A DNA stretch of 64,000 nt from an uncultured Bacilli bacterium. GTDB taxonomy: Bacteria; Bacillota_I; Bacilli_A; RF39; UBA660. The notes below the pieces were generated by a model. The model was not told where the DNA came from, ran no database searches, and was given only the letters and a program-made list of their open reading frames with translations. A program made the position numbers and the translations under genes. The DNA is taken from positions 11,815 to 75,814 of the forward strand of contig CANPXU010000001.1 of NCBI GenBank assembly GCA_947586825.1, in the 5' to 3' direction. This document shows, piece by piece, positions 1,918 to 43,693 of the stretch (the stretch's first letter is position 1; every line of letters begins with the position of its first letter).

Positions 1918-3027
1918 TTAATATTTTCTCCATACTGTTCTATTGATATAGTCAGTATAGCTCATAATAATCCTTACAACTTTATAAGATAAATTATCAA
2001 CATCATAGTCACTAACAATATGCATTTTTTTATTTTGACTTGTAACTATTTTAATGGAATCTAGTATACTTTTAGACTCTACGCCACTCATTATCAAAGT
2101 TCCTTCATCCATTCCTTCTGGTCTTTCATGAGCTTGTCTTATTGTAATTGCAGGGAACCCCATTAAAGAGGACTCTTCAGTTATAGTGCCACTATCTGAA
2201 ATAACACAAAAAGCATTTTGTTGAAGTTTGTTATAATCATTAAAGCCAAGTGGTTTCATATAGTTAACATATTCATTAAATTTAAAATTCATTTCTTCTA
2301 TTTTTTTCCTTGTTCTAGGGTGAGCACTGAATATTATAGGCATTTTGTAAGTCTCACCAACATCGTTTATAGCATTAAGTAATGATAAAAAGTTTTTTGG
2401 ATTATCAACATTTTCTTCTCTATGAGCACTTAATACAAAGTAATTATTTCTTTCTAGATTCAACCTTTCAAGAATATCACTATTATCAATACTTTCTTTA
2501 TTACATTCAAAAACTTCTTTCATGCTTGAGCCCGTTTTAATAATAGTTTCTGGTTTTATCCCTTCAGCAATTAAATATCTTCTAGCATGCTCTGTAAGTG
2601 TCATGTTAATATCACTCAAATGATCAACTATTTTTCTATTAATTTCTTCTGGCACTCTTTCATCAAAACATCTATTGCCTGCTTCCATATGAAAAACAGG
2701 AATTTTATTTCTTTTTGCTGAAATTACTGACAAACAAGAATTAGTATCACCATATAGCAAAAGTGCATCAGGCTTATGCTTTTTAAATATTTCATCTGAT
2801 TTTTTTATAACATTTGCTATTGTCTCAGCAGCATTTTCTCCCGCAGCATTCATATAAATATCAGGTTCTCTTAAACCTAAATCTTTAAAGAAAACTTCAT
2901 TTAATTCGTAATCATAGTTTTGCCCAGTGTGAACCAGAATGTGATCTGTATATTTATCTAATTCTTTTATCACACAAGCTAGCTTGATAATTTCTGGCCT
3001 AGTGCCAACTATTGTCATTACTTTCAT
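1918..3027 (-). CDS. UDP-N-acetylglucosamine 2-epimerase family (non-hydrolysing; WecB/Cap5G/FnlC/WbvD-like)
   Basis: 369 aa. Motifs MTIVGTRPEIIKL, HTGQNYD and SDSGTITEES are typical of the epimerase_2 family. It is the last gene of a three-gene 6-deoxy-L-HexNAc module. Confidence 0.85.
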   Translation of the reverse strand: MKVMTIVGTRPEIIKLACVIKELDKYTDHILVHTGQNYDYELNEVFFKDLGLREPDIYMNAAGENAAETIANVIKKSDEIFKKHKPDALLLYGDTNSCLSVISAKRNKIPVFHMEAGNRCFDERVPEEINRKIVDHLSDINMTLTEHARRYLIAEGIKPETIIKTGSSMKEVFECNKESIDNSDILERLNLERNNYFVLSAHREENVDNPKNFLSLLNAINDVGETYKMPIIFSAHPRTRKKIEEMNFKFNEYVNYMKPLGFNDYNKLQQNAFCVISDSGTITEESSLMGFPAITIRQAHERPEGMDEGTLIMSGVESKSILDSIKIVTSQNKKMHIVSDYDVDNLSYKVVRIIMSYTDYINRTVWRKY

Positions 3028-3041
3028 ATTAACATCTCCTA

Positions 3042-3875
3042 CTATAAGTTAGGATATAAATCCTTATGTGAATCAACCCATTCTTTCATTTCCTTAATCA
3101 TCTCTTCATATGAAGGTATGTTATAATCAAATGATTTTTCAGTTCTAATAAGAGTTTTTTCACTTTTCAACTCATCGTTTATCTCTATATCAACTTTTTT
3201 ATTAAAGACATTTTTAAATAATTTTAGCAATTCATATTTTGGTATTGTACTATTATTTACAACATGTTGTAAGCCAGTGATATTATTTTTTATTGTAGAT
3301 TCTATTGCTTTAGCTAATTCAATAGTTGTAACACCCGTCCAAATAACCTTTGAATATCCATAAACTTTATCATTTTGACTCATAAACCATTGAAATAAAC
3401 CTATTCCTTTTGGGTTAGAATCAGGCCCAACAATAGAAGTCCTTAAAGTTACATTTCTTTCATTGTTAATTTCGCCTAAAGCTTTGCTTCTCCCATAAAA
3501 GCTAGTTGCATCAGGTAAACTATCTTCTGTATAATTTCCATCTAAACCACTAAATACACAATCCGTACTTATATGGATTAATTTAAAACCATACTTTTCA
3601 GATATGCTATCCAAATAGTGCGGTAGTAAACTATTCAATTTAACAGCCATGAATTTGTTATCCTCAGCAGCCTTATTTAATATACCAATACAATTAATTA
3701 CAACATTTGGCTTTATATCTTTAATTATTGACTCAATTGCTTCCATATCGCCAAAAGCATCATACTTTATATCTTCTTTTGTGGAAGTGCCATAAACCTC
3801 ATAATCTCGTTCTTTAAAATAATTAAATACAACATGGCCTAACATCCCTGTTTTTCCAAGTACAAGGATTCTCAT
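3042..3875 (-). CDS. RmlD-like NAD(P)-dependent sugar reductase (C4-reductase step; FnlB/Cap5F- or WbvR/QnlA-type)
   Basis: 277 aa. N-terminal Rossmann motif MRILVLGKTGMLG and the dTDP-4-dehydrorhamnose-reductase-like length and layout. Overlaps the upstream dehydratase gene by 4 nt. Confidence 0.7.
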   Translation of the reverse strand: MRILVLGKTGMLGHVVFNYFKERDYEVYGTSTKEDIKYDAFGDMEAIESIIKDIKPNVVINCIGILNKAAEDNKFMAVKLNSLLPHYLDSISEKYGFKLIHISTDCVFSGLDGNYTEDSLPDATSFYGRSKALGEINNERNVTLRTSIVGPDSNPKGIGLFQWFMSQNDKVYGYSKVIWTGVTTIELAKAIESTIKNNITGLQHVVNNSTIPKYELLKLFKNVFNKKVDIEINDELKSEKTLIRTEKSFDYNIPSYEEMIKEMKEWVDSHKDLYPNL

Positions 3876-4885
3876 TCAACATCTCCCATTTTTTTCAATA
3901 ACTCTATCATACCATTAATATCCAATCTTTCAGTATTATTGGAAGTATAAGACTCTACTTTTCTTACTTTGCCATCACCTTCTGGATAAAATTTGTCATA
4001 ATTCAAATCTCTATTATCCATTGGAATTTTAAAATAATCCCCCATGTCAATTGCTTTTGTCATTTCTTCTCTTGTTACAAGAACTTCATGATCCTTCTCA
4101 CCATGTCTTGTGCCAATAATTTTTATCTCTGCATCACTATTTTTAAATTTTTTTACTGCTTCCGCAAGAGTTTGGATTGTTGCTCCTGGAGCTTTTTGTA
4201 CAAATAAATCACCTTGATTACCATTCTTAAAAGCAAATAATACTAATTTAACTGCATCTTCCAATGTCATCATATAGCGTGTCATTTCTGGATCTGTAAC
4301 AGTTAAAGGTTTGCCTTCTTTTATTAATTTATAAAACAAAGGTATAACGCTTCCTCTAGAACCCATTACATTTCCATAGCGAGTTAAACAAATGGTAGTT
4401 TTAGCATCATCGCCTAACATTCTTGCTTTTGCAATTATAGTTTTTTCCATTAAAGCCTTACTCATTCCCATCGCATTAATCGGATAAGCAGCTTTATCAG
4501 TACTTAGACAGACAATCTTTTTTACTCCATGCTTTACTGCGCTTTCTAAAACATTATAAGAGCCAAAAACATTGGTTTTCGCAGCTTCAATTGGAAAGAA
4601 CTCACATGAAGGAACTTGCTTTAGTGCTGCAGCATGAAATACATAATCAACGCCTTCCATGGCAACATCAATAGTATTTATATCTCTTACATCACCAATA
4701 AAAAATTTTAATTTATGGTTATTATATTTTTTCCGCATATCATCTTGTTTTTTTTCATCTCTAGAGAAAATTCTTATCTCCTTCAATTCAGTATTATTTA
4801 AAAACATCTCTAATACCTTATTTCCAAAAGATCCGGTACCTCCAGTTATTAATAAAACTTTATCTTTAAAAATATCTTCTTTCAT
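3872..4885 (-). CDS. UDP-GlcNAc 4,6-dehydratase/5(3)-epimerase, CapE/FnlA/WbvB family
   Basis: 337 aa. Colinear with S. aureus CapE as I recall it: LLITGGTGSFGN, IRIFSRDEKKQDDMRKKYNN.KLKF.IGDVRD, HAAALKQVPSCEFFP, STDKAAYPINAMGMSKA. Confidence 0.85.
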   Translation of the reverse strand: MKEDIFKDKVLLITGGTGSFGNKVLEMFLNNTELKEIRIFSRDEKKQDDMRKKYNNHKLKFFIGDVRDINTIDVAMEGVDYVFHAAALKQVPSCEFFPIEAAKTNVFGSYNVLESAVKHGVKKIVCLSTDKAAYPINAMGMSKALMEKTIIAKARMLGDDAKTTICLTRYGNVMGSRGSVIPLFYKLIKEGKPLTVTDPEMTRYMMTLEDAVKLVLFAFKNGNQGDLFVQKAPGATIQTLAEAVKKFKNSDAEIKIIGTRHGEKDHEVLVTREEMTKAIDMGDYFKIPMDNRDLNYDKFYPEGDGKVRKVESYTSNNTERLDINGMIELLKKMGDVE

Positions 4886-11711: not shown

Positions 11712-12767
11712 TTACTTTTTATTCTTTTTCTTATGTTCAAATAAAATATTAGTCTTAGCTACAATAATGATTAAGATAAACATTAATACAATATAGATAG
11801 CTATAGCTAGTTTACTATTATTGCCTAAAGCATAGAATATTGATACTAAAGAGAAAAGAATACTTATAAAATAGATTATAAATAAACTTTTTTTTGGTGA
11901 AAATTTCATTCTAAGAAGTTGATGATGTAAATGTTCTTTATCAGGTTCTCCGATACTTTGATGCTTAATAAGTCTTCTTATAATGGCAAATAAAGTATCA
12001 AAAATTGGAATAGCAAGGATTAACATTGGCACAACTAAAGATGTAATGGTAGCCACTTTAAATCCTAGTAAAGCTATAATCGATATCATAAAGCCTAAGA
12101 ATGTACTTCCGCAGTCGCCCATGAATACTTTGGCAGGTGGAAAATTATGCGTTAAAAAGCCTAAGGTTGAGCCAAGCATAATTAAACATAAAATAACATC
12201 AAGGCCAGAAGTATTACCCATCATAAAGGCAATAACCGATATGGTAGCAAAGTAAATACTACTTACGCCAGCACAAAGACCATCAAGGCCATCTATTAAG
12301 TTAATCGCATTGATAGCAGATACAATAAATAAAATAGATATAATTTGGCCTAACAATATAGGAAAATAAAAGTTAAAGCCTAATAAAGAAATATGTTGAA
12401 AAAATAATCTTCCATAAAAGACTACAATGGATGCCACTAAAAGATGCACCAAAAATTTATATTTAGCCCTAATAGGCTTAATATCATCTAAAATACCTAA
12501 TACTACTAAAATAAATGAAGCTATTAAAATAGATAGCATTTGCGTAGTAATTTCACCATAAGCTATATAGCCAAATAAAAATCCACCATAAATAGCTATA
12601 CCCCCTAGTCTAGGCATAGGATGCTTATGAATTTTTCTTTCATTAGGCATATCCATTGCTCCCACATGGACAGCAAGCTTTTTAGATAGAAATACTAAAA
12701 TAAAACTAACTAGATAAGTTACAATTAATATCTCTAATATATTGTGATTATTAATAACAAAATTCAT
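11712..12767 (-). CDS. tagO: Undecaprenyl-phosphate HexNAc-1-phosphate transferase (TagO/WecA, MraY-like family)
   Basis: 351 aa, ~10 TM segments. Motifs MDMPNERKIHK.PMPRLGGIAIY, NAINLIDGLDGL and FMGDCGS. Confidence 0.85.
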   Translation of the reverse strand: MNFVINNHNILEILIVTYLVSFILVFLSKKLAVHVGAMDMPNERKIHKHPMPRLGGIAIYGGFLFGYIAYGEITTQMLSILIASFILVVLGILDDIKPIRAKYKFLVHLLVASIVVFYGRLFFQHISLLGFNFYFPILLGQIISILFIVSAINAINLIDGLDGLCAGVSSIYFATISVIAFMMGNTSGLDVILCLIMLGSTLGFLTHNFPPAKVFMGDCGSTFLGFMISIIALLGFKVATITSLVVPMLILAIPIFDTLFAIIRRLIKHQSIGEPDKEHLHHQLLRMKFSPKKSLFIIYFISILFSLVSIFYALGNNSKLAIAIYIVLMFILIIIVAKTNILFEHKKKNKK

Positions 12768-27616: not shown

Positions 27617-28824
27617 TATAACATCTCCTTAACTATCTTATCTTTATTTGAAAGTAGTTCTACTAAAGTATCTATCTCACTTTCCGTATTATAAAAAGCA
27701 AGACTTACTCTTAACGAATTAGTTACTTTCGTAGCATTTTTAAGTATCTTAGCACAGTGATTACCTGCTCTTACACATACTTTATACTTATTTAGATAAA
27801 AAGCTACATCTTGGGAGAAAATACCCTCGACATTAAAACTAACAATACCGCTGTCAGCCTCTAAATTAATGATATCGATATAGGGAATTTTAATTAATTT
27901 ATCTATTAAATACTTACGAAGATATAACTCTCTTTCATTTATTTTATCCATTCCTATTTTATTAAGATAATCTATGGCAGAACCAAAGGCTATAACACTC
28001 GCAATATTAGGGGTTCCCGCTTCTAGTCTTGTCGGAATATCTTTAAGAAGGATTTCACTAGGGCTATCAAAGCTTTCATTCATTCCTCCTCCTAGATTAA
28101 TAGGATTCAAATTTTCTAAAAGTTCTTTCTTACCATATAAGATACCAAGTCCCGTAGGGCCATACATTTTATGCGCTGAAAAAGCTAGGAAATCACAATC
28201 TAAATCTTTAACATCAACTTTTTTATGAGGAACACTTTGAGCACCATCAACGACAACAAATATGTTATTCTCATGAGCAAATTTACATATTTCTTTAATT
28301 GGTCTTACATCCCCGATTACATTAGTAATTTCTGCTATAGCAATTATTTTCGTATTTGGTGTAACCATCTTTTTAACATTATCTAAAGTTACATGATAAT
28401 TACTATCAAGAGGAATATACTTTACTATAGCTCCTTTTTCATTTTGAAGTCTAAACCAAGGTAACACATTGGAAGCATGTTCACTTGTTGTAATTAATAT
28501 CTCGTCACCAGCTTCAATTAGAGGAGCGAAAAAACCCGTAGCTATCATATTAAGAGAATCAGTAGCACCAGAAGTAAAAACGATTTCTTCACTATCCGCA
28601 TTAAGAAATTCAGCAACCTTTTCTCTAGTACCTTCATACTCTTGATCTACTTTATAAGAGATATCATAATCGCCCCGATGGGCATTAGCTGAGTATTTAG
28701 AATAATATTCTACCGTTTTATCAATGACACATTTAGGTTTTAAACTAGTAGCACCATTATCTAAATATATGATATCTTCCTCTAGCATTGGAAAATCTTC
28801 TCTATTCATCCTGTTCCTTTCCAT
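27616..28824 (-). CDS. sufS: Cysteine desulfurase SufS (class V aminotransferase)
   Basis: Motifs YLDNGATS, SAHKMYGPTGLGILYG (PLP Lys) and RAGNHCA (catalytic Cys). The start is probably MNREDFP at 28806. Confidence 0.85.
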   Translation of the reverse strand: MERNRMNREDFPMLEEDIIYLDNGATSLKPKCVIDKTVEYYSKYSANAHRGDYDISYKVDQEYEGTREKVAEFLNADSEEIVFTSGATDSLNMIATGFFAPLIEAGDEILITTSEHASNVLPWFRLQNEKGAIVKYIPLDSNYHVTLDNVKKMVTPNTKIIAIAEITNVIGDVRPIKEICKFAHENNIFVVVDGAQSVPHKKVDVKDLDCDFLAFSAHKMYGPTGLGILYGKKELLENLNPINLGGGMNESFDSPSEILLKDIPTRLEAGTPNIASVIAFGSAIDYLNKIGMDKINERELYLRKYLIDKLIKIPYIDIINLEADSGIVSFNVEGIFSQDVAFYLNKYKVCVRAGNHCAKILKNATKVTNSLRVSLAFYNTESEIDTLVELLSNKDKIVKEML

Positions 28825-29404
28825 AATTTATTTGTTTTAAAAATTCTTTATCAAATAAATTAAATAAAAAACTTTTCTTTAATATCTTTATTGCTTCTTC
28901 TTTACTTATACCTTTTGTTTGTAGATAAAAAAGTTCCTCTAAAGGATAATGACCGATGGTAGCGTAGTGCTCTGCTTTAACTTCACTCGTATCAATTTCT
29001 AAAATAGGCATAAAGTTTAAAGTACCATCTTCCAAAATACCTTTTAAATCTTCCACTACTTCATTATCTTTAGTATTTTCGTTAACAGATACTTTAGCAT
29101 TAACAGTGCCATGATTTTCTAAAGCAATAGCTCTAAAATTAAGAATATAATGATTATTATTGCCTAAAACATTACCATTAATATTAATAGTGGTATCACT
29201 TCTTGCAAATCCTGAGAAATTAATGACAACATAACTGTTATTATTTTGGGTAGTTTTAATATCTACACTTTTAAATGAGTTATTAAAGATATTTATAATA
29301 AGCATCTCATTATCATTTAAAACATACTCTAGGCTTTCATCATTATCAATTAGATTAACTACTTTTTTATCCATTAGTATTTTATTCACTTTTTCCATCT
29401 TCAT
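28802..29404 (-). CDS. Short SufD/SufB-family protein (about 200 aa; C-terminal beta-helix core only)
   Basis: C-terminus ..AEHYATIGHYPLEELFYLQTKGISKEEAIKILKKSF resembles the SufB/D C-terminal signature. Lies between sufC and sufS. Roughly half the usual SufD length. Confidence 0.6.
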   Translation of the reverse strand: MKMEKVNKILMDKKVVNLIDNDESLEYVLNDNEMLIINIFNNSFKSVDIKTTQNNNSYVVINFSGFARSDTTININGNVLGNNNHYILNFRAIALENHGTVNAKVSVNENTKDNEVVEDLKGILEDGTLNFMPILEIDTSEVKAEHYATIGHYPLEELFYLQTKGISKEEAIKILKKSFLFNLFDKEFLKQINYGKEQDE

Positions 29405-35313: not shown

Positions 35314-35388
35314 GCAGGTGTAGTACAGCGGTTAGTATGTGGCCTTGCCAAGGCTAAGACGGCGGTTCGATTCCGCTCACTTGCTCCA
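35314..35388 (+). tRNA. tRNA-Gly (anticodon GCC), CCA encoded
   Basis: Manual cloverleaf. Acceptor GCAGGTG/CACTTGC, D stem GTAC/GTAT, anticodon stem TGGCC/GGCTA with loop TTGCCAA, 4-nt variable loop, T arm GGCGG-TTCGATT-CCGCT, discriminator U, then CCA. Confidence 0.9.
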
Positions 35389-35399
35389 ATAAAAACACT

Positions 35400-35429
35400 G
35401 AAATCCCTTAAAATAAGGGATTTCTTATT
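35400..35429 (+). terminator. Intrinsic terminator after tRNA-Gly
   Basis: Perfect 10-bp stem GAAATCCCTT / AAGGGATTTC (35400-35424) with a 5-nt loop, followed by TTATT. Confidence 0.6.
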
Positions 35430-35637: not shown

Positions 35638-36666
35638 TTATTTTAAGTCATCTTTTTTAGAAAAGTTTATATTAAATCTATTACCATCAAGGTAAAAAGC
35701 AAAAGGATATATGACCTTTTTTTCATTTACTAAATCTTCTTGTTTAATATCTATTATTCTTTCAATTGTAGGACTTGTATTAACAGTTACCATTTTAGCT
35801 TTGACTGTTTTTACAAATAAAGAAGCATTTTCAGAAGATGATGTAAAAATTGCGGAACTATATCCTGCTCCATTGTAGTTAATTTGAGCGATAGCCTCAA
35901 GAATATCATCAACAATAATAGCATTAGGATAATCTACATTAACATTTTTATTTATATAAACTTCTATATTTAACCCAGTATTTATTATCTTGTTTATAAA
36001 ATCTATATGATTGTTATCTTCGATATAAATTTCAAAGTTTTCATAGCCACTTACTATCGTTTTATTTTTAGTTTTATTTAATATCATATGTTGTAGACTA
36101 TGACTACCAATACAAACCACTAAATCAATATTAGCAAAATTAGCTAATAATTCATCAAAGTTTTCCGAAATATATATTTGCACTAAGTATTTTGATATAT
36201 TAAATTCTTCCAAAACACTTTGTACTATTTGAACTAATAATTGATTGGTACCATACATATATCCTGAATTAGAAAGAATTAATGTATTTCCTGAGATAAT
36301 ATTTCTAATTATCATCTCAATTACAACATAGGGATTACCATCATTAATAACAACTACATTACCAATATCCATTATCTGGGTGCCAAAAGTAAGTTTTTTT
36401 GTTTCATCTTTTTGTAAAACTTTAACATCACCATAAAAGGTATTTTCTTTTTCCAGATTAGAGAATATTTTTTTAACAATATTAAAATCCATTGTAAAGC
36501 CATTATTATTTCTTTTATCAATTGCATTGGCTTCTTTTATGATGGTTTCATTACTTTCTATAGCTTTTTTTATTTGAGGTACTATTAATTTAACATTTTT
36601 AATTAATAAATCTTTTTCTACTTGAAGAGCATTAGCTATTATTTTATTAATATCATTATCTTCCAT
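35638..36666 (-). CDS. ProA-like (gamma-glutamyl-phosphate reductase/ALDH fold) protein lacking the catalytic-Cys segment
   Basis: 342 aa. Colinear with ProA blocks as I recall E. coli ProA: IGNVVVINDGNPYVVIEMIIRNIISGNTLILSNSG ~ [31 protein letters not shown], and AIAQINYNGAGYSSAIFTSSSENASLFVKTVKAKMVTVNTSPT ~ AIAHIREHGTQHSDAILT..A.RF...VDSSAVYVNASTRF. The ..STCN..ETLLV block is absent. The start overlaps the upstream gene by 11 nt. Confidence 0.55.
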   Translation of the reverse strand: MEDNDINKIIANALQVEKDLLIKNVKLIVPQIKKAIESNETIIKEANAIDKRNNNGFTMDFNIVKKIFSNLEKENTFYGDVKVLQKDETKKLTFGTQIMDIGNVVVINDGNPYVVIEMIIRNIISGNTLILSNSGYMYGTNQLLVQIVQSVLEEFNISKYLVQIYISENFDELLANFANIDLVVCIGSHSLQHMILNKTKNKTIVSGYENFEIYIEDNNHIDFINKIINTGLNIEVYINKNVNVDYPNAIIVDDILEAIAQINYNGAGYSSAIFTSSSENASLFVKTVKAKMVTVNTSPTIERIIDIKQEDLVNEKKVIYPFAFYLDGNRFNINFSKKDDLK

Positions 36667-39600
36667 TATTAATACCCCTTTCTATATCCATTTCATCAGT
36701 TAGGCTAATAGCTTTAGCATACATTTCTTGAGCTTGGCTATCAAGTGATGATATATCAACATCTTTGTCTTTGGCTATTTGATCTAAAGCAAGTCTTATT
36801 TGCATTATGACCTGACTTGCAATATCCATTTGTTGCATACCATTATCAACTTTAATATTAAATAATAAATCCGCTATTTTAAGTTTATCCCCGTTTATAT
36901 CATATATAATGGCAAAGTTAGGATTCATAACAATTCGAGCTGTATTAGGATTTAAGCCATAATTTCTAGCAAGTTCTGTGACAATATGTTTAGTATCAGC
37001 ATATTCGCCAAGGTTGGTTTCTAAATAGTTTGGATTATTCTTAGTTACTAATTCTAATTTTTCTAAAGTAAGTAAAGATTTTTCCGTAAATGTTTCATCA
37101 GTATACTCAATAAAGGTATCACTATGAACTGATAAAGTTTCTCCACTGTAAGCTTTTCTATCATCACGCTCTTCTAAAATATATTGGGTTGAAGAATCAT
37201 TTGTATATAATCCTCGTGATAGTTTTACAGGTTCACTAAATGAAAGTGGTCTACTTACAATACTAGTATCAACTTTAGAATTAGCTTTTAATGACTCGGC
37301 AATATCATTATAACCTAAGCCAACGGTTATTTTACCTAGCCTTAGGCCTTCATATTGCTCTTCCGTTATCATGCCTGCTTCAAGAAGGCTTTTATAAACT
37401 TCTTCATCCGCAGCCATTAAATCTTGAGCAGCTTGTTTATATATTTGGAAAATTTCATCAGTAAAACCTTTTCTGCCTAATTCTGGATGTTCTCTATCGG
37501 CTCTAGTAAATGCCTTATCAGGAATTTCAATATTATCAAAACATAGTACATCTTTATTACGCCATACCCAGCTTTGAGCAACAATGTTTCCTTGGCTATC
37601 TCTAATTACAAATACCCTACCATTTTTATCAACCATACTATGTTCCATACAAACCTCAGCACAGTTATTTAACTCTTGGCAACAATCGGTTAATGTTCCT
37701 ATAGCCATAGCAAGAGGATCATCTAAACGTAATATTTCATATGTATAATCACCACTTACCTTTTTAGTATTTTGGCTAATACGAGGAATACTACTAAATA
37801 CTCTTTGCTTACCATAGTTATATATTTGTTGTAGAACATTAAAATCATATTGGCTATAACCCGCGATAGCTGATATTTCAGCAACTTTCTCATTACCCAC
37901 ATTAACGGAAGTATATTTATTAGATTGAATAAAGCTAATTGCTAAATCTAAAGTTAAGACTCTATTACTATTAATAGCTTTTATTTCTGAAAATTGTTTT
38001 TGAATATTAGCAATAAAGCTTATATATTCAGGATTATCTAATATTTCGTCTATATTTTGGAGTAAGAATTCTCTAAAGTCAGGATCATATTTTAATTCAA
38101 AACCACCAAATAATTGATGGGCTTTATTAGGACTTAAAACAGGAACATCAGGATATACTCCAAGCATGCTTCTTATAATATCAGTAGATTTAGGATAACT
38201 TTGGGTATTAATAGTTAAGACATATGTTCCATCGGGCTTTTTGTGATATATTTGACTAAATAATTCTTTATCATTATCAATAGAAAAGCCTTCGGCAATA
38301 AGTGCTTCTTTTAATTTAAGATATTGCTGACAATCTAAAGGCATTTCTGCTCCGGGAGCCAACCCCTTTATTTTCTCTTCGATATGACATAACTCATTGA
38401 TAACATGTTCACAATTAGGTTTTAGATTTCTTGGTAAACTTGTTAATAAATTTTGAAGTTTTTTAAAACCTTTTTGATCTTGATCAAAAGCCCCGAATGA
38501 ATAACCTAATTTAAGCATAGCTTCTCTAGCTTCTTTAGAACTTGCAAAGCTTTTGATTCGCATTAAGTTACTCCAGTTAGAGGCTGAATTCAAAAACTTG
38601 TCAGCATCTTCCAAAGGGAAATTTTGCATAACAACAAAATCAGGAATAAACTTTCTTCCCGTCTTGTCATACCATTTTTTCATAGTCGCTACATTATGGG
38701 CTTTCATCATTTCCATTACAGTTTCAGAGCGACTAATTCCTAACTTAAGAGCTTTTTCTTCTCCGAATAAATTAATAAAATCGATTAAATCTTGTTTTAA
38801 ATAATTACATCTAAGTAAAGAAGAAATTAAAGCTTTACCCTCTAAAAAAGGTAACCATTCCTTATGCTTTTGTAAAACATCAAAGGACAAAGGATAATTA
38901 TTTCCACAGTTATAAAAGAATAATTTTAATTCTTCAGGAGCATCATTACTTAAAAATAATTCTGGATGTCTACTAGAAAGGAAACCTGGAGCATCCTCAG
39001 GTTGATAATCAAGATTACCATTTATACTTTCTCTAATAATAAGATTTTCTATTCTTTTAGCTATAGCTTCAATAGTTAATTCGTTTTGGGTATTAGTATC
39101 AAAACATTTACCATCTTTTATGGTAATTTCTCCATTAAGTAGTTGGAAAATACTATCCATATATCTACCATATTCAGCACATAGTTTTAAAAAGCTGTCA
39201 TTATCAAAAGCATTTAATAAAATAAGATTCCCTGTTGAAAGATTATAAGTATTATTTGATGGATCATTTCTATTACCAAAGGCTACCCATAGATTCTTAT
39301 CTTTTAAAATAGTCATTAACTCAGGATGCTTTTTTATATCATCAAAAGTCATATTTCGATTATAAAAAGCATTAGTTAATCTCATTCTTTCATTCGAAGG
39401 AATATTTACTAAAGAAGAAAGATTAATAAATAGTTCTGGATAAGCATAAACAAACTCAGGAACTTGTGTTAGATAAGCATACTCAACTTTACCACTTACA
39501 ATTTTATTATAAACACTCTTTTTAATGGCACTTTCAATTTTATTTTCATCATCTAATTCATTTTTAGCAATCGTAATAGTTAAATCAGAAAGAACATCAC

Positions 39601-41485
39601 CATATTTAACACATAAACTCAAAAATTTTTCATTGCCATATCTTTTTGTATATTCTTCGATAAAATTCAAAGTTTCTTCTTTTTCAGAATCAGTTATGAC
39701 TAACTTCATATCAGCTTTAATAGTCTGAGCTAAATTTCGATTCACAAGAAAAGGTATATAATCATAATGATTATATAAAAGCTTAGGACTAAGATTATTA
39801 GAGTAAAAAGCTTTTCTTAACTCTTCAGGAGCATTTAAATCCATAAACATATCTGGATGTTTATCTCTAAAACTACCTCGTATCCAATCATAATTAACAG
39901 GCTTAATATTAGAGCCTTCATTTCTTATATAGCCTATGAATTTAGCAAACATATTGGCAAATTCTTCATAAGAAAGATGACCTCGTTGAAAGTTTATACC
40001 ATATTTTTTAAATGCTGTTAAATGGCCATTTGAATAGTGATAGCCAAGAGGACTAAGTGCCTCTAACTCTTGAGACCATTCATAGTCTTTATGAGTAAAG
40101 AATCCTGTTTCTGCCTCGAAAAGGCGGATATTTTCTATACCGAAATTATCCACAATCATTCTTTGTTCTTTATCAATAATACATGTATGGTCATTATATT
40201 GTAATAATTCTTCCCATGTATCTATTTTATTAACAAAAGTAAAATTCATAGATTTAAGCCAGTCCATACTATTAAGTGTATCTAAAGATGGCGTGGAAGA
40301 AACAAATAGATATTCTTTAACGGCTTTAACAAACGATGTTTCTAAATCTTTATCTTTCATTAAAAATTGACTTAAAGAATAAAAATCATTAGCATCAGCT
40401 ATATGTGTAAATACATCAGCATGTCTTTGAACAAGCTTTTGAAATTCGCCTAGGCCATAGTTATCCCTTGCAAAAGTTGCCACATAAGAGGAATTATAGT
40501 TTAGAAAATAATCAATAGGAATCGAAGCAAAAGCATCAGCATAGGTAATTATATCTTGAATAGTTAAATCATGTGCAAAATATCTTTGTTTTACATCATC
40601 TGGTATATTAACATTCAATAAAAATATATCAGCATTTTCTTTAATAAATATATCAGGATATAAATCCACATTAATTTTTCGACTAGAATTAATTATTTTT
40701 TGCCGAGCAAAAGCAAAACATCTACTTTTTATTTCTGTTACAGGGCATACTTTAATTTGCTCTTTTAACTCGTCATAAGAAATACTTGAACTATTAAAAC
40801 GGTAGTCAATACCACCCTCCATATAGATAATTGTATTAATAGCCTCATATTCTTCTTTAGATAATAAGTATAGTTCTACAGCTTTTTTAAGACCTAGTAT
40901 TCCAATTAACTGTACTTCATTATTATGATAATTAATATGAGAATTTAAGTCTTTTGCAGCAACTTCACTTAACTGTTCTGAAGTTAAAGAAGCAAAGTCA
41001 CTAATAGTTAACATTCCTTGATAATATTTAGCTTTAAATTCTTCACTAAAGCTATCTGATAGAAATAAGGAAGCATTTGCTTCAATGGTTTCTTCATCAA
41101 AGTCTTTAACATTGAGTTTTCTTCCTAGTTTGCTAAGATTTCTTACATTACAGCCATGAAAATTACCATGGCCGGTATACTCTACTAAAGCAAAATCAAT
41201 ATTAGCTTTAGTATTAGAAAAATCTATAGGACGGGATTCATCAGCGACAATCGACATTCCTTCCCAAGCTTCAAAAGGAATATCGCTTAAATCATAACGT
41301 AATAAAGTGTTTTGTAAAGCTATATAGTCATTAATAGTTTGTTCTTCCAAAGCGCTATCATCAAAACCAGGATCATCTTTATGAGCATCATAAAAATCGT
41401 CATAGTCTTTAACTAACTTACTTAATTGGCTTTTTATTTGATTGAATTGTTCTAAAGTCATCTTTGGAAACATTTTATACACCAT
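36656..41485 (-). CDS. Giant (1609 aa) cytoplasmic repeat-containing protein of unknown function
   Basis: Long uninterrupted ORF. No signal peptide, TM segment or Walker motif seen. At least five copies of a motif ..F(L/M)..(N/S)..(P/S)(E/D)E(L/F/V)(K/R)..(F/Y)Y...(L/M)(T/S)..D.. . A Cys-rich module TDCCQELNNCAEVCMEHSM starts at aa 1266. Confidence 0.6.
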   Translation of the reverse strand: MVYKMFPKMTLEQFNQIKSQLSKLVKDYDDFYDAHKDDPGFDDSALEEQTINDYIALQNTLLRYDLSDIPFEAWEGMSIVADESRPIDFSNTKANIDFALVEYTGHGNFHGCNVRNLSKLGRKLNVKDFDEETIEANASLFLSDSFSEEFKAKYYQGMLTISDFASLTSEQLSEVAAKDLNSHINYHNNEVQLIGILGLKKAVELYLLSKEEYEAINTIIYMEGGIDYRFNSSSISYDELKEQIKVCPVTEIKSRCFAFARQKIINSSRKINVDLYPDIFIKENADIFLLNVNIPDDVKQRYFAHDLTIQDIITYADAFASIPIDYFLNYNSSYVATFARDNYGLGEFQKLVQRHADVFTHIADANDFYSLSQFLMKDKDLETSFVKAVKEYLFVSSTPSLDTLNSMDWLKSMNFTFVNKIDTWEELLQYNDHTCIIDKEQRMIVDNFGIENIRLFEAETGFFTHKDYEWSQELEALSPLGYHYSNGHLTAFKKYGINFQRGHLSYEEFANMFAKFIGYIRNEGSNIKPVNYDWIRGSFRDKHPDMFMDLNAPEELRKAFYSNNLSPKLLYNHYDYIPFLVNRNLAQTIKADMKLVITDSEKEETLNFIEEYTKRYGNEKFLSLCVKYGDVLSDLTITIAKNELDDENKIESAIKKSVYNKIVSGKVEYAYLTQVPEFVYAYPELFINLSSLVNIPSNERMRLTNAFYNRNMTFDDIKKHPELMTILKDKNLWVAFGNRNDPSNNTYNLSTGNLILLNAFDNDSFLKLCAEYGRYMDSIFQLLNGEITIKDGKCFDTNTQNELTIEAIAKRIENLIIRESINGNLDYQPEDAPGFLSSRHPELFLSNDAPEELKLFFYNCGNNYPLSFDVLQKHKEWLPFLEGKALISSLLRCNYLKQDLIDFINLFGEEKALKLGISRSETVMEMMKAHNVATMKKWYDKTGRKFIPDFVVMQNFPLEDADKFLNSASNWSNLMRIKSFASSKEAREAMLKLGYSFGAFDQDQKGFKKLQNLLTSLPRNLKPNCEHVINELCHIEEKIKGLAPGAEMPLDCQQYLKLKEALIAEGFSIDNDKELFSQIYHKKPDGTYVLTINTQSYPKSTDIIRSMLGVYPDVPVLSPNKAHQLFGGFELKYDPDFREFLLQNIDEILDNPEYISFIANIQKQFSEIKAINSNRVLTLDLAISFIQSNKYTSVNVGNEKVAEISAIAGYSQYDFNVLQQIYNYGKQRVFSSIPRISQNTKKVSGDYTYEILRLDDPLAMAIGTLTDCCQELNNCAEVCMEHSMVDKNGRVFVIRDSQGNIVAQSWVWRNKDVLCFDNIEIPDKAFTRADREHPELGRKGFTDEIFQIYKQAAQDLMAADEEVYKSLLEAGMITEEQYEGLRLGKITVGLGYNDIAESLKANSKVDTSIVSRPLSFSEPVKLSRGLYTNDSSTQYILEERDDRKAYSGETLSVHSDTFIEYTDETFTEKSLLTLEKLELVTKNNPNYLETNLGEYADTKHIVTELARNYGLNPNTARIVMNPNFAIIYDINGDKLKIADLLFNIKVDNGMQQMDIASQVIMQIRLALDQIAKDKDVDISSLDSQAQEMYAKAISLTDEMDIERGINNGR

Positions 41486-41581: not shown

Positions 41582-43693
41582 TTAAAGTTTTTGGCCTCCA
41601 GGAGCATCATTTTTTAAACCCTCTTTTATTTTACTTAGTCTATCCCTTTCTTGTTGGAGTTTTTCAGTATCAGCACATACCCATCCAGGATTATTACGTG
41701 TTAAATTATAAAGGATAGCACTAATATCGCCACAATATTTTTCTTGACCTTCCCATAATAAAACTTCTTCGATAAATTGCCTAACCGGAATACTGATGCC
41801 ATTTGCTAAAATTACTTTTCCATCCATAGGAATGTAGGGAGCATAAATTTCTTCGATATATTTTTTAGCACTTACTTGCGTTCCATCAGGAAGATTTATC
41901 ATTTTATCTAGAAGATCAGGATTAATATATTTAGTGATATCTAAAGGGTTTATCTCAAGAGTTTGGCCTTGAATTTGCAAAGTAATAACTCCCATGTTGT
42001 TTTGCGTTTTATCCATTAAGTATCTAGGTAAATCACCATTATATTTTTCTTGGCATTCAAATAAGATACCCTCTTCTATAAATTGTTTAATAGGAAGCAG
42101 TTCTCCATCATTTAAGATAACAATTCCATTTGCTGGTAAACGAGGAAAAACCATTTGCTTTATATACTCTGCCGCGGACATAACTGAGCCATCAGGCATT
42201 GTTATTTGTCTTTGTAAAAGAGCGCTATTTATTATGCTTAGGAAGTTTTCATCATCAAGATGCGTCTTATCAAGTTCTTTATTAGCTATATTTTTAACTT
42301 GTTTTTCATTTTCTTCGAAAGCATTAATTTTTTCTGTAGCCTTTATATCAAAACAAAATTTATTATCATCTATACCAAATGATTTAGCATTTGTTTTGAT
42401 ACTATTTTGAACTTTGGCTATAAAATCAGGGCTATTTTTAGAAATAAAGCCTGCCATTTGTTTAATAACTTGCTCTAAAGTAGAACCATTAAATACTATT
42501 TCTTTGCCACTTTTAACGGGAATATGGACGTCATCATTATTTGTATAAGTTTTATTAGCTAATTTTTCAAGAAGTGAAGGAATATGTCCTTTAATACTTT
42601 GATATATCATTTCTCTAAAAGATGAAGAATGTACATCTTGTAAGGAATAACCAAAATGCTCATCTATATTTTGGTAATCAACTTCTCCACCTTTTAAATG
42701 TCTTTTATCAGATTCAACCCTAGACAAATACTTTCTCTCTAAACTATTTAAAAACATTTCAACTGCTTTTAAAGTTACAAATTCAGTAAAAGTCATATTT
42801 CTTCCCTGATATTTTATTTGTAAACCAGTATTTTGAATAAAATCGATAGTTTCTCTTCTTATTGCATTTTCTAAAAGCTCAGCTCTTACGCCATTAAAGG
42901 ATCTTGACTTACCATCAGGTGTTGGTTCTGGCTCAGAGCCATAGCCAATCCAACCATCAATTTTACCAGTGAGAATCGGAGGCTCTTTGATTCTAGCTAC
43001 AACATCAGGATGTTCTTTTTTGATTGCTTCTAAAATTTTTAAATATTCATCAAATTCTTCAGTTGGTAAATATATGACAATAGTATCATCACGGTTAGCA
43101 TAAAGATCGAACTTAAAATAATAAGGTAAGTGATGTTCATCAAATTTCTCTACTAGAAATGTAATCATTTTATACGTATCTAAAGATTCAGTATTTATAT
43201 ATAATCTATGGTCAGCTTTAGGATATTTATCCTTTTTAGCAGTTAGATATCTTGAGCATACATGAACCCAGCCACTGCCTTCGCCAAAAGAACGCCAACT
43301 ATAATGCTCTAAAGCTTTTTCTAATTCTTTATCACCCTTTGGGCCATAGAAAACTTCATTAGCTTCTTTCATAGTAGTTACATCAGGAACACCTTTTAAA
43401 TATTTTCGCATTTTAATAAAGTCTTGGCCATAACTTCCTTGACGATATAACTCAATAAATTCTTCTCTAGTCATGGCTAAAATGCTATTTTTCCACTTAT
43501 TAAAAAGCATAGCGTGGAATCTATCACCATCTTGAGCATAATATTCCCCCTTAGTATGTTCTTTTGTTACCATATTAGTTAACTTAGAATAATATGCTCC
43601 TTCGCTAGTAACATAGGCATGTATTAGCTTTTCTATTACTTTAGGATCATCTATTGGATTTGCCACTTGATTATATAATTCGTTTAGTTTCAT
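41582..43693 (-). CDS. Uncharacterised 703-aa protein with internal C-terminal tandem duplication
   Basis: aa 160-210 (HRLYINTES..YYFKFDLYANRDDTIVIYLP) are reminiscent of the R.Y.N...K(F/V)...R.D..V.Y pattern of HopA1/LanKC-lyase-like domains. This is my recollection only. aa ~485-567 and ~588-670 are clear repeats of each other. Confidence 0.5.
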   Translation of the reverse strand: MKLNELYNQVANPIDDPKVIEKLIHAYVTSEGAYYSKLTNMVTKEHTKGEYYAQDGDRFHAMLFNKWKNSILAMTREEFIELYRQGSYGQDFIKMRKYLKGVPDVTTMKEANEVFYGPKGDKELEKALEHYSWRSFGEGSGWVHVCSRYLTAKKDKYPKADHRLYINTESLDTYKMITFLVEKFDEHHLPYYFKFDLYANRDDTIVIYLPTEEFDEYLKILEAIKKEHPDVVARIKEPPILTGKIDGWIGYGSEPEPTPDGKSRSFNGVRAELLENAIRRETIDFIQNTGLQIKYQGRNMTFTEFVTLKAVEMFLNSLERKYLSRVESDKRHLKGGEVDYQNIDEHFGYSLQDVHSSSFREMIYQSIKGHIPSLLEKLANKTYTNNDDVHIPVKSGKEIVFNGSTLEQVIKQMAGFISKNSPDFIAKVQNSIKTNAKSFGIDDNKFCFDIKATEKINAFEENEKQVKNIANKELDKTHLDDENFLSIINSALLQRQITMPDGSVMSAAEYIKQMVFPRLPANGIVILNDGELLPIKQFIEEGILFECQEKYNGDLPRYLMDKTQNNMGVITLQIQGQTLEINPLDITKYINPDLLDKMINLPDGTQVSAKKYIEEIYAPYIPMDGKVILANGISIPVRQFIEEVLLWEGQEKYCGDISAILYNLTRNNPGWVCADTEKLQQERDRLSKIKEGLKNDAPGGQKL

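Follow-up and report, generated by a model that had tools for sequence, protein, structure and literature searches.

What does a protein of some 1,600 amino acids (aa) do in uncultured gut bacteria with small genomes? The question is raised by a 64,000-nucleotide stretch of DNA from an uncultured Bacilli bacterium (GTDB lineage Bacillota_I; Bacilli_A; RF39; UBA660), which comprises positions 11,815 to 75,814 of the forward strand of contig CANPXU010000001.1 in assembly GCA_947586825.1, is called the window here, and belongs to a rabbit metagenome-assembled genome (MAG; Lapin-022 bin33). Its minus strand carries a giant gene at 36656-41485, directly followed by a gene for a ProA-like protein. 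Carriers of this family have small genomes of about 1 Mb, in which the giant gene is among the largest, and the cost of maintaining such a large gene in a genome of that size suggests an important role. No source gives the family a name, no Pfam, NCBIfam or PHROG model covers it, and no relevant paper was found in the literature searched on PcfJ, PcfJ-like proteins and DUF4116. The description given below is well supported, comprising a real gene, five repeats, a GNAT-fold end, a Cys/Asp/Glu signature and a pseudo-ProA partner. As to function, we infer, with a probability of about 0.55, that the giant protein is an acyl- or aminoacyl-transferase-like enzyme on a scaffold, with the pseudo-ProA protein as its working partner.

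The open reading frame (ORF) at 36656-41485, which an earlier note had described from the sequence alone, is present and runs through 1609 codons without interruption under translation table 11, and more than 350 full-length homologs share 45-62% identity with its product. The true start is probably an alternative ATG at 41473, located 12 nt past an AGGA and yielding a product of 1605 aa, because homolog alignments begin at residue 5 of the 1609-aa ORF and a near-identical database entry is 1605 aa long. The protein is strongly acidic, with a net charge of -66, and possesses neither a signal peptide nor a transmembrane segment (maximum 19-residue hydropathy 1.28). It is read from its sequence as soluble and cytoplasmic, because both a signal peptide and a hydrophobic segment are missing.

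The functional reading is centred on a signature block at aa 1268-1320 (37526-37684, minus strand), T.CCQ ... (C)..H ... NGRVFV ... AQSW.WRN ... LCFDNIE. The cysteine block quoted in the earlier note is found at aa 1265, and the view taken there, that the C-terminal block is the functional core, is supported. Conservation in the protein peaks in this block, with a column identity of 87% over aa 1251-1300. Residue conservation was counted over 255 family members, including the 48 most distant (<45% identity). C1269, H1282, C1315, D1317 and E1320 are present in 100% of them, the 48 distant members included, while C1268 is retained in 98% of the 255 and 90% of the 48, C1279 in 80% and 35%, and C1275 in 33% and 0%, respectively. 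Of the four-cysteine cluster originally described, C1268 and C1269 are thus conserved, whereas C1275 and C1279 vary among homologs; a fixed four-Cys metal knuckle, the site once envisaged for this cluster, is refuted because two of its four cysteines are unconserved. C1315, by contrast, is a conserved cysteine that had not been singled out. When still more remote relatives were added, namely paralogs of 719 aa and 968 aa found in the genus and the ORF68 product of Microcystis phage MaMV-DC, strict invariance was confined to P1234, C1269, E1320, G1389 and Y1427, with C1315, D1317, W1306 and W1308 conserved in at least 90%. The signature of the family as a whole reads IPR ... T.CCQ ... H/Y ... 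NGRV ... AQSW.WRN ... LCFDNIE.

The fold that carries this signature was predicted by AlphaFold2 for aa 1100-1609 from 91 sequences, with a predicted local distance difference test score (pLDDT) of 88.5 and a predicted template modelling score (pTM) of 0.84. According to the model and to Foldseek, aa 1225-1445 (37151-37813, minus strand) form a GNAT-fold core. In the first half of the core, DSSP assigns the hairpin b1 to 1237-1251, a1 to 1258-1265, a2 to 1277-1285, b2 to 1289-1296 and b3 to 1301-1310, and in the second half b4 to 1313-1320, a3 to 1337-1369, b5 to 1385-1389, a4 to 1396-1402 and b6 to 1434-1439. The order of elements over aa 1237-1439, read from the DSSP order and not from strand pairing, is the GNAT order b1-a1-a2-b2-b3-b4-a3-b5-a4-b6. 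The top 50 Foldseek matches of the C-terminal 510 aa in the PDB are all GNAT-fold proteins, single or tandem, and include NatD (4u9w), YhbS (4rs2) and Gcn5 (1m1d) with probabilities of 0.96-0.99 and target-normalised template modelling (TM) scores of 0.45-0.52. The predicted fold thereby backs a GNAT-like model, which the earlier note had named as a secondary suggestion, and the beta strands expected after the cysteine cluster are present in the model. In the viral structure library BFVD, an uncharacterised phage protein ranks first (E 1.9e-10); Lactobacillus phage LP65 Orf137 and GNAT acetyltransferases come next, together with a few proteins bearing PcfJ-like names, which score only marginally.

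The model puts C1269 in the loop between a1 and a2, H1282 within a2, and C1315, D1317 and E1320 on b4. The acceptor site of GNAT enzymes is lined by b4 and the a1-a2 region, and b4 often bears the general base. The giant protein resembles the GNAT superfamily, represented by NatD/Naa40, E. coli YhbS, Tetrahymena Gcn5 and SpeG, both in its predicted order of elements and in having its invariant acids on b4, the general-base strand of many GNATs. It differs from them in an extra helix between b4 and a3, in a SHOCT-like insert between a3 and b5, in the invariant cysteine pair C1269/C1315, which is not a GNAT trait, and in the position of the module at the end of a chain of 1600 aa.

The GNAT-fold core is preceded by a conserved, all-helical linker or pre-catalytic region at aa 936-1224 (37814-38680, minus strand), which is helical in both models, shows a conservation of 0.66-0.74, and contains the nearly invariant block WYDKTG.KFIPDFVVMQNF...ADKFL...NWSNLMRIKSF...MLKLAYSFGAFDQDQ.G. 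It is followed by a less conserved alpha/beta lobe at aa 1446-1609 (36659-37150, minus strand), with the order a-a-b-b-b-a-b-a in the model secondary structure. Tandem GNATs, such as Legionella VipF (6wqb/7wx5), the Sphaerobacter protein 3tt2 and Weissella FemX (1ne9/7z6a), align with the C-terminal 510 aa over 350-390 columns and, like the giant protein, have a second alpha/beta lobe after a conserved GNAT core. However, the lobes are arranged differently (TM 0.16-0.27, root-mean-square deviation about 20 Å), the second lobe of the giant protein is poorly conserved, and the giant protein and the tandem GNATs share no sequence similarity. Judged from the model, this lobe could possibly be a second, degenerate GNAT-like half. 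FemX-type enzymes likewise lack the coenzyme A (CoA) motif, because their donor is aminoacyl-tRNA.

A SHOCT-like motif, GMITEEQYEGLRLG, is located at 37349-37402 (aa 1362-1379), inserted between a3 and b5 of the core; it matches Pfam SHOCT with E 0.016-0.08, reaches 8.6e-5 in homologs, and is missing in the remote paralogs. The SHOCT-like family-scan match over these residues (13-15 bits) was dismissed as noise, together with matches to XkdX and DUF1153.

The C-terminal module is held at the end of a long helical array. The five motif copies quoted in the earlier note were located at aa 138, 285, 544, 683 and 841, and the recurrence proposed there is statistically sound. For each motif region, a hidden Markov model (HMM) was built from 85 aligned full-length homologs and searched against the query, with 1000 shuffles as the control; these HMMs recover other repeat positions at 9.5-30 bits, whereas the best of the 1000 shuffles reach 5.2-9.3 bits. 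The cross-scores are 16.1/13.8 bits between repeats 1 and 2, 30.2/24.6 between 3 and 5, 12.2 for 2 and 4, and 9.5 for 5 and 4. Because hhalign comparison of the family profile with itself aligns long stretches (aa 121-768 with 268-915, E 1.4e-28; aa 135-624 with 541-915, E 1.9e-16), the motif stands at the head of a unit that is itself longer, about 140-160 aa in length and 273 aa in one case. Each unit opens with the consensus hPELF..AP.ELK..FY..L(T/S)..D(I/L), and a second motif, (F/Y)G.E.FL.L...YG, recurs within the unit.

The HMMs and the profile self-alignment delimit unit 1 as aa 121-267 (40685-41125, minus strand, as are all units), with motif ASLFLSDSFSEEFKAKYYQGMLTISDF at aa 138, and unit 2, the long one, as aa 268-540 (39866-40684), with motif ADIFLLNVNIPDDVKQRYFAHDLTIQDI at aa 285. 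Unit 3 spans aa 541-676 (39458-39865) and bears motif PDMFMDLNAPEELRKAFYSNNLSPKLL at aa 544 and the second motif YGNEKFLSLCVKYG at aa 616, while unit 4 spans aa 677-835 (38981-39457), with PELFINLSS...NAFYNRNMTFDDI at aa 683 and FDNDSFLKLCAEYGRY at aa 762. Unit 5 covers aa 836-935 (38681-38980) and contains PELFLSNDAPEELKLFFYNCGNNYPLSFDVL at aa 841 and FGEEKALKLGI at aa 907. The AlphaFold2 model of the first 1100 residues (pLDDT 87.9) is nearly all helix, and a Foldseek search with these 1100 aa returned only generic alpha solenoids (best E 0.7) and no PDB relative. A PDB profile match of the repeat region to the DHR1 helicase (E 3.7e-4) was set aside as spurious.

Column identity in the array is 0.30-0.57, the lowest of the protein, compared with 0.74-0.87 in the C-terminal core, and the 1553-aa homolog P0076 lacks query aa 186-332, that is, one unit. 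The array thus evolves faster than the rest of the protein and differs in unit number among homologs. Additionally, three distant relatives of the C-terminal module bear DUF4116 repeats in place of the array (best E 8.7e-70); DUF4116 itself (PF13475) has no match in the giant protein. Since the array is the least conserved part, has lost a unit in one homolog and is exchanged for DUF4116 repeats elsewhere, the scaffold is replaceable while the C-terminal end is constant.

Ahead of the array, the N-terminal region (aa 1-120; 41126-41485, minus strand) consists, in the model secondary structure, of two long helices and a short pentapeptide-like beta segment at aa ~61-120, with the units YDLSD, IDFSN, ANIDF, GNFHG and CNVRN; the stretch quoted in the earlier note from this region is found at aa 95. 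L66, S67, I69, W74, A94, N95, D97 and C112 are invariant. Pfam pentapeptide models match neither the whole protein nor its pieces, and at aa 65-115 the AlphaFold2 model contains only short strands and beta bridges, with about five A(D/N)LXX-like units readable by eye.

The second member of the pair is a 342-aa ProA-like protein of the gamma-glutamyl phosphate reductase fold, encoded at 35638-36666 on the minus strand. Its start overlaps the stop of the giant gene by 11 nt (36656-36666), with a ribosome-binding-site-like GAAAGGGG 9 nt upstream. Over the NADPH-domain and C-terminal blocks, the protein aligns colinearly with ProA and with the reductase domain of P5CS (PDB E 9e-9 to 6e-7); it differs from them in being about 50 residues shorter, in scoring below the ProA cut-offs (68 versus 289 bits; 41.8 versus 317 bits), and in having a Cys-free segment in place of the STCN..E nucleophile block. 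No cysteine is conserved among 63 partner sequences, so that the partner appears, by its sequence, to be a pseudoenzyme with a ProA fold and no nucleophile cysteine. Neither another proA nor a proB was found in the genome of the window (1.2 Mb, 82% complete).

Among the 73 species-representative loci with enough downstream sequence, the partner lies directly downstream on the same strand in 65, and in loci of unrelated contexts an overlapping partner gene again follows the giant gene. The giant gene is thus almost always coupled to a disabled ProA copy, and the partner is the better conserved of the two (67-73% identity versus 53-54% for the giant protein). The two genes form a conserved unit, and their other neighbours are not conserved. 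Two further neighbours had been candidates: an upstream 703-aa gene was rejected as a relative or conserved partner (BLAST E 0.49; absent from other loci), and a 171-aa gene was rejected as a conserved neighbour, being absent beside the giant gene in other genomes. The four genes for products of 171, 703, 1609 and 342 aa are therefore no conserved operon.

Taken together, the GNAT-fold module would be an acyl- or aminoacyl-transferase-type enzyme, whose catalytic centre would be formed by the acid residues of b4, at the usual place of the GNAT general base, and by the invariant cysteines, which might either become acylated in a covalent intermediate or bind metal in a small site. Without CoA motif A, the enzyme need not use acetyl-CoA as its donor. 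A large substrate would most likely be recognised or held by the repeat array, and the giant protein would act in complex with the ProA-like protein, whose downstream gene is translationally coupled to the giant gene. The pair would be an accessory two-gene module, found in different genomic places in different genomes.

Several points weigh against the transferase reading. The PDB matches in Foldseek have E values of only 4e-3 to 4e-2 and low TM scores when normalised to the 510-aa query; E values this weak assign a fold but do not prove homology. No sequence-level link to GNATs is seen either: Pfam, including its GNAT families, NCBIfam and PHROGs are empty for the query, its pieces and 31 distant homologs, with the E limit raised to 5, the Acetyltransf and FemAB models still miss both the query and all 31 distant members, and the C-terminal module has no match when its profile is searched against PDB sequences. 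CoA motif A of GNATs (Q/R-x-x-G-x-G/A) is absent from the b4-a3 segment IEIPDKAFTRADREHPELGRKGFTDE, which is variable, with G1337 conserved in 65%, R1338 in 73% and G1340 in 35%, and is shortened in remote paralogs. Furthermore, the 719-aa paralog and the cyanophage protein have Tyr in place of H1282, and the five residues C1269, H1282, C1315, D1317 and E1320 were placed by secondary-structure element, not by three-dimensional distance. The proposed physical interaction with the partner derives from gene order only.

The same residues could, alternatively, form a structural metal site, binding Zn or an Fe-S cluster, with the GNAT-like module non-catalytic and the whole protein an adaptor. Two invariant cysteines, a histidine and an acid residue are plausible Cys2-His-Asp/Glu ligands, and a non-catalytic module would agree with the absence of the acetyl-CoA motif A and with a partner that is itself a pseudoenzyme; pseudo-GNAT lobes are, moreover, common in tandem-GNAT proteins. 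Nevertheless, no fixed set of four ligands runs through the family, because remote members have Tyr for H1282 and neither C1275 nor C1279 is conserved, and conservation is densest on b3 and b4 (AQSW.WRN, LCFDNIE), the active-site strands of GNATs, exceeding what a structural site needs. An adaptor of this kind is unlikely, although it deserves more credence than the other alternatives.

A further alternative, which concerns the biological role and is compatible with the transferase reading, is that the pair is a conflict module, either a toxin and its partner or a defence system. Under this view, the GNAT-like end would act on a macromolecule of the cell or of an invader and modify it, for instance in the way that the GNAT toxins TacT/AtaT modify aminoacyl-tRNA, while sensing or targeting would fall to the variable repeats and regulation or neutralisation to the ProA-like protein. 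Several features speak for this proposal. Occurrence within the genus is patchy, with a full-length copy in 5 of 22 genomes (that of the window counted); neighbourhoods differ among genomes, and in one of them transposase fragments and a serine recombinase adjoin. It is also favoured by the variable region at a tRNA gene described below, fast-evolving repeats beside a conserved enzymatic end, distant relatives of the core in phage genomes, and the tandem paralogs on one contig (JAEEMF010000072.1), where two copies of the giant gene (L090/L096) lie about 6 kb apart. The upstream copy of that pair has no ProA-like gene directly after it, which suggests the arrangement giant-giant-ProA.

In the window, the 3' end of a tRNA-Gly(GCC) gene (35314-35388, plus strand) marks the edge of the variable region holding the gene pair. 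DNA homology with same-genus genomes spans this tRNA and ends at its 3' end (35389); from the tRNA to a DUF2207-like gene, one relative has 1.1 kb and the window genome 12 kb, and the contigs of the two closest relatives (G018 and G019) break about 70-250 nt past the tRNA. A perfect bidirectional terminator hairpin with an 11-bp stem stands at 35400-35424, 11 nt after the tRNA gene.

Against a conflict role, the window contains no integrase, no duplication of the tRNA 3' end or other att repeat, no flanking direct repeat and no second copy of the terminator hairpin, the GC content around the pair is the same as in the surrounding genome, and PADLOC gave no significant match. The partner lies downstream and is better conserved than the giant protein, which is atypical of an antitoxin, and known GNAT toxins are only about one tenth as large as the giant protein. 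A conflict module is rather doubtful as the role of this pair. The pair is thus an accessory one within a variable region, and the window shows no mobile cassette around it.

A more far-reaching and quite improbable reading joins both proteins in a single two-subunit enzyme, in which a cysteine of the GNAT module (C1269 or C1315) would form a thioester to be processed in trans by the Cys-less ProA-fold subunit. That subunit, with its nucleotide-domain blocks kept, might for example carry out an NADPH-dependent reduction of the acyl-thioester, and the rapidly evolving array of repeats would pick the macromolecular target. On this reading, gut bacteria with reduced genomes would possess in the pair a mobile system for conflict or modification that has no described counterpart.

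Kinship with PcfJ proteins of conjugative plasmids and phages, at which the earlier note had hinted, is nearly refuted. Both kinds of protein have a short Cys motif before beta strands, lack a known function and occur in large multidomain proteins of mobile elements. A superficial likeness of pattern (G..T.CCQ ... VFVIR versus EG..L.HCV..Y ... i.F.R ... T.E) and three PcfJ-like-named phage proteins at BFVD ranks 4, 8 and 11 (E 2.4e-3 to 1.5e-2, probability 0.33-0.75) speak for it, but the TM of the PcfJ-named matches is at most 0.15, the PcfJ consensus (EG..L.HCV..Y ... F.R ... T.E ... Q.RG..N) has HCV..Y, T.E and Q.RG..N where the giant protein has CCQ, W.WRN and CFDNIE, PF14284, with membership set at a Pfam HMM score of at least 25 bits, recovers 11 true PcfJ members elsewhere in the phylum and matches neither the protein (E up to 1) nor its five overlapping pieces or the six-frame genome (E up to 10), hhalign of the core profile against those 11 proteins gives probabilities of 0.07-0.1% (0.1% with domain-restricted alignments), and no relative is found on plasmids and no close one on IMG/VR viral contigs.

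In a library of 1.8 billion proteins, 1609 clusters formed at 50% identity match the C-terminal 460 aa. The 141 loci in species-representative genomes belong nearly all to uncultured gut Bacilli MAGs, from rabbit, human (Hadza, Nepal), goat and chicken hosts, and include entries labelled Tenericutes, Mycoplasma sp. CAG:877/CAG:956 and Clostridium sp. CAG:710/CAG:914. A standalone-domain search with P0253 gave only 10 matches, mostly fragments. No relative was found in the plasmid collection or among IMG/VR viral contigs, and in phage GenBank entries the Microcystis phage ORF68 is the sole match, over the 70-aa signature. This protein of Microcystis phage MaMV-DC (NC_029002; L109, 1531-3624) is 697 aa long, is annotated as hypothetical, and contains T.CCQ...AQSW.W.N...LCFDN.E; the core domain therefore extends past the Firmicutes and into phage genomes.

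Two kinds of shorter paralog occur in the genus. A paralog of about 720 aa is present in 9 genomes, 3 of which also have the full-length gene. In such paralogs, for example at 2079-4238 of locus L009 (G008:C5), H1282 is replaced by Tyr and W1306/W1308 are lost (AMIPFVRNG), and an XRE-type membrane protein follows. One genome holds a 968-aa paralog with the same core (L011, G017:C105, 125-4624), which shows CC..H..W.WRN..C.DNIE and has no ProA-like partner. It begins 7 nt past the stop of a 528-aa protein in which ankyrin repeats and an AAA+ ATPase are recognised by eye, and is a different partnership for the same catalytic core.

The interest of the family lies in the joining of a known catalytic fold, GNAT, to an unusual Cys/Asp/Glu signature, a helical scaffold with no relative in the PDB, and a pseudo-ProA partner. 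Identification of the substrate would give the acyltransferase superfamily a new branch, and might account for an accessory trait of gut bacteria of the RF39 type, an uncultured group that is common in humans and animals. Additionally, thousands of proteins would gain an annotation together once the core (IPR...T.CCQ...H...NGRV...AQSW.WRN...LCFDNIE) has a domain model.

Some minor observations concern neighbouring genes. In the homologous locus L001 (1-7866), the opposite-strand genes upstream of the giant gene include members of the SUFU, DUF1653, DUF3658/DUF1835 and B3_4 families, some of which are classed as immunity-type proteins of polymorphic toxin systems. The 703-aa gene upstream of the giant gene in the window (41582-43693, minus strand) has a weak Pfam match to HopA1 effectors at aa 161-286 (E 1.3e-6) and contains an internal DNA duplication, 41726-41790 versus 42032-42096, with 75% identity at a distance of 306 nt. 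In the suf cluster of the window, a SufD/B-like gene of 200 aa (28802-29404, minus strand) aligns with no more of the SUFBD core model than its last 53 positions.

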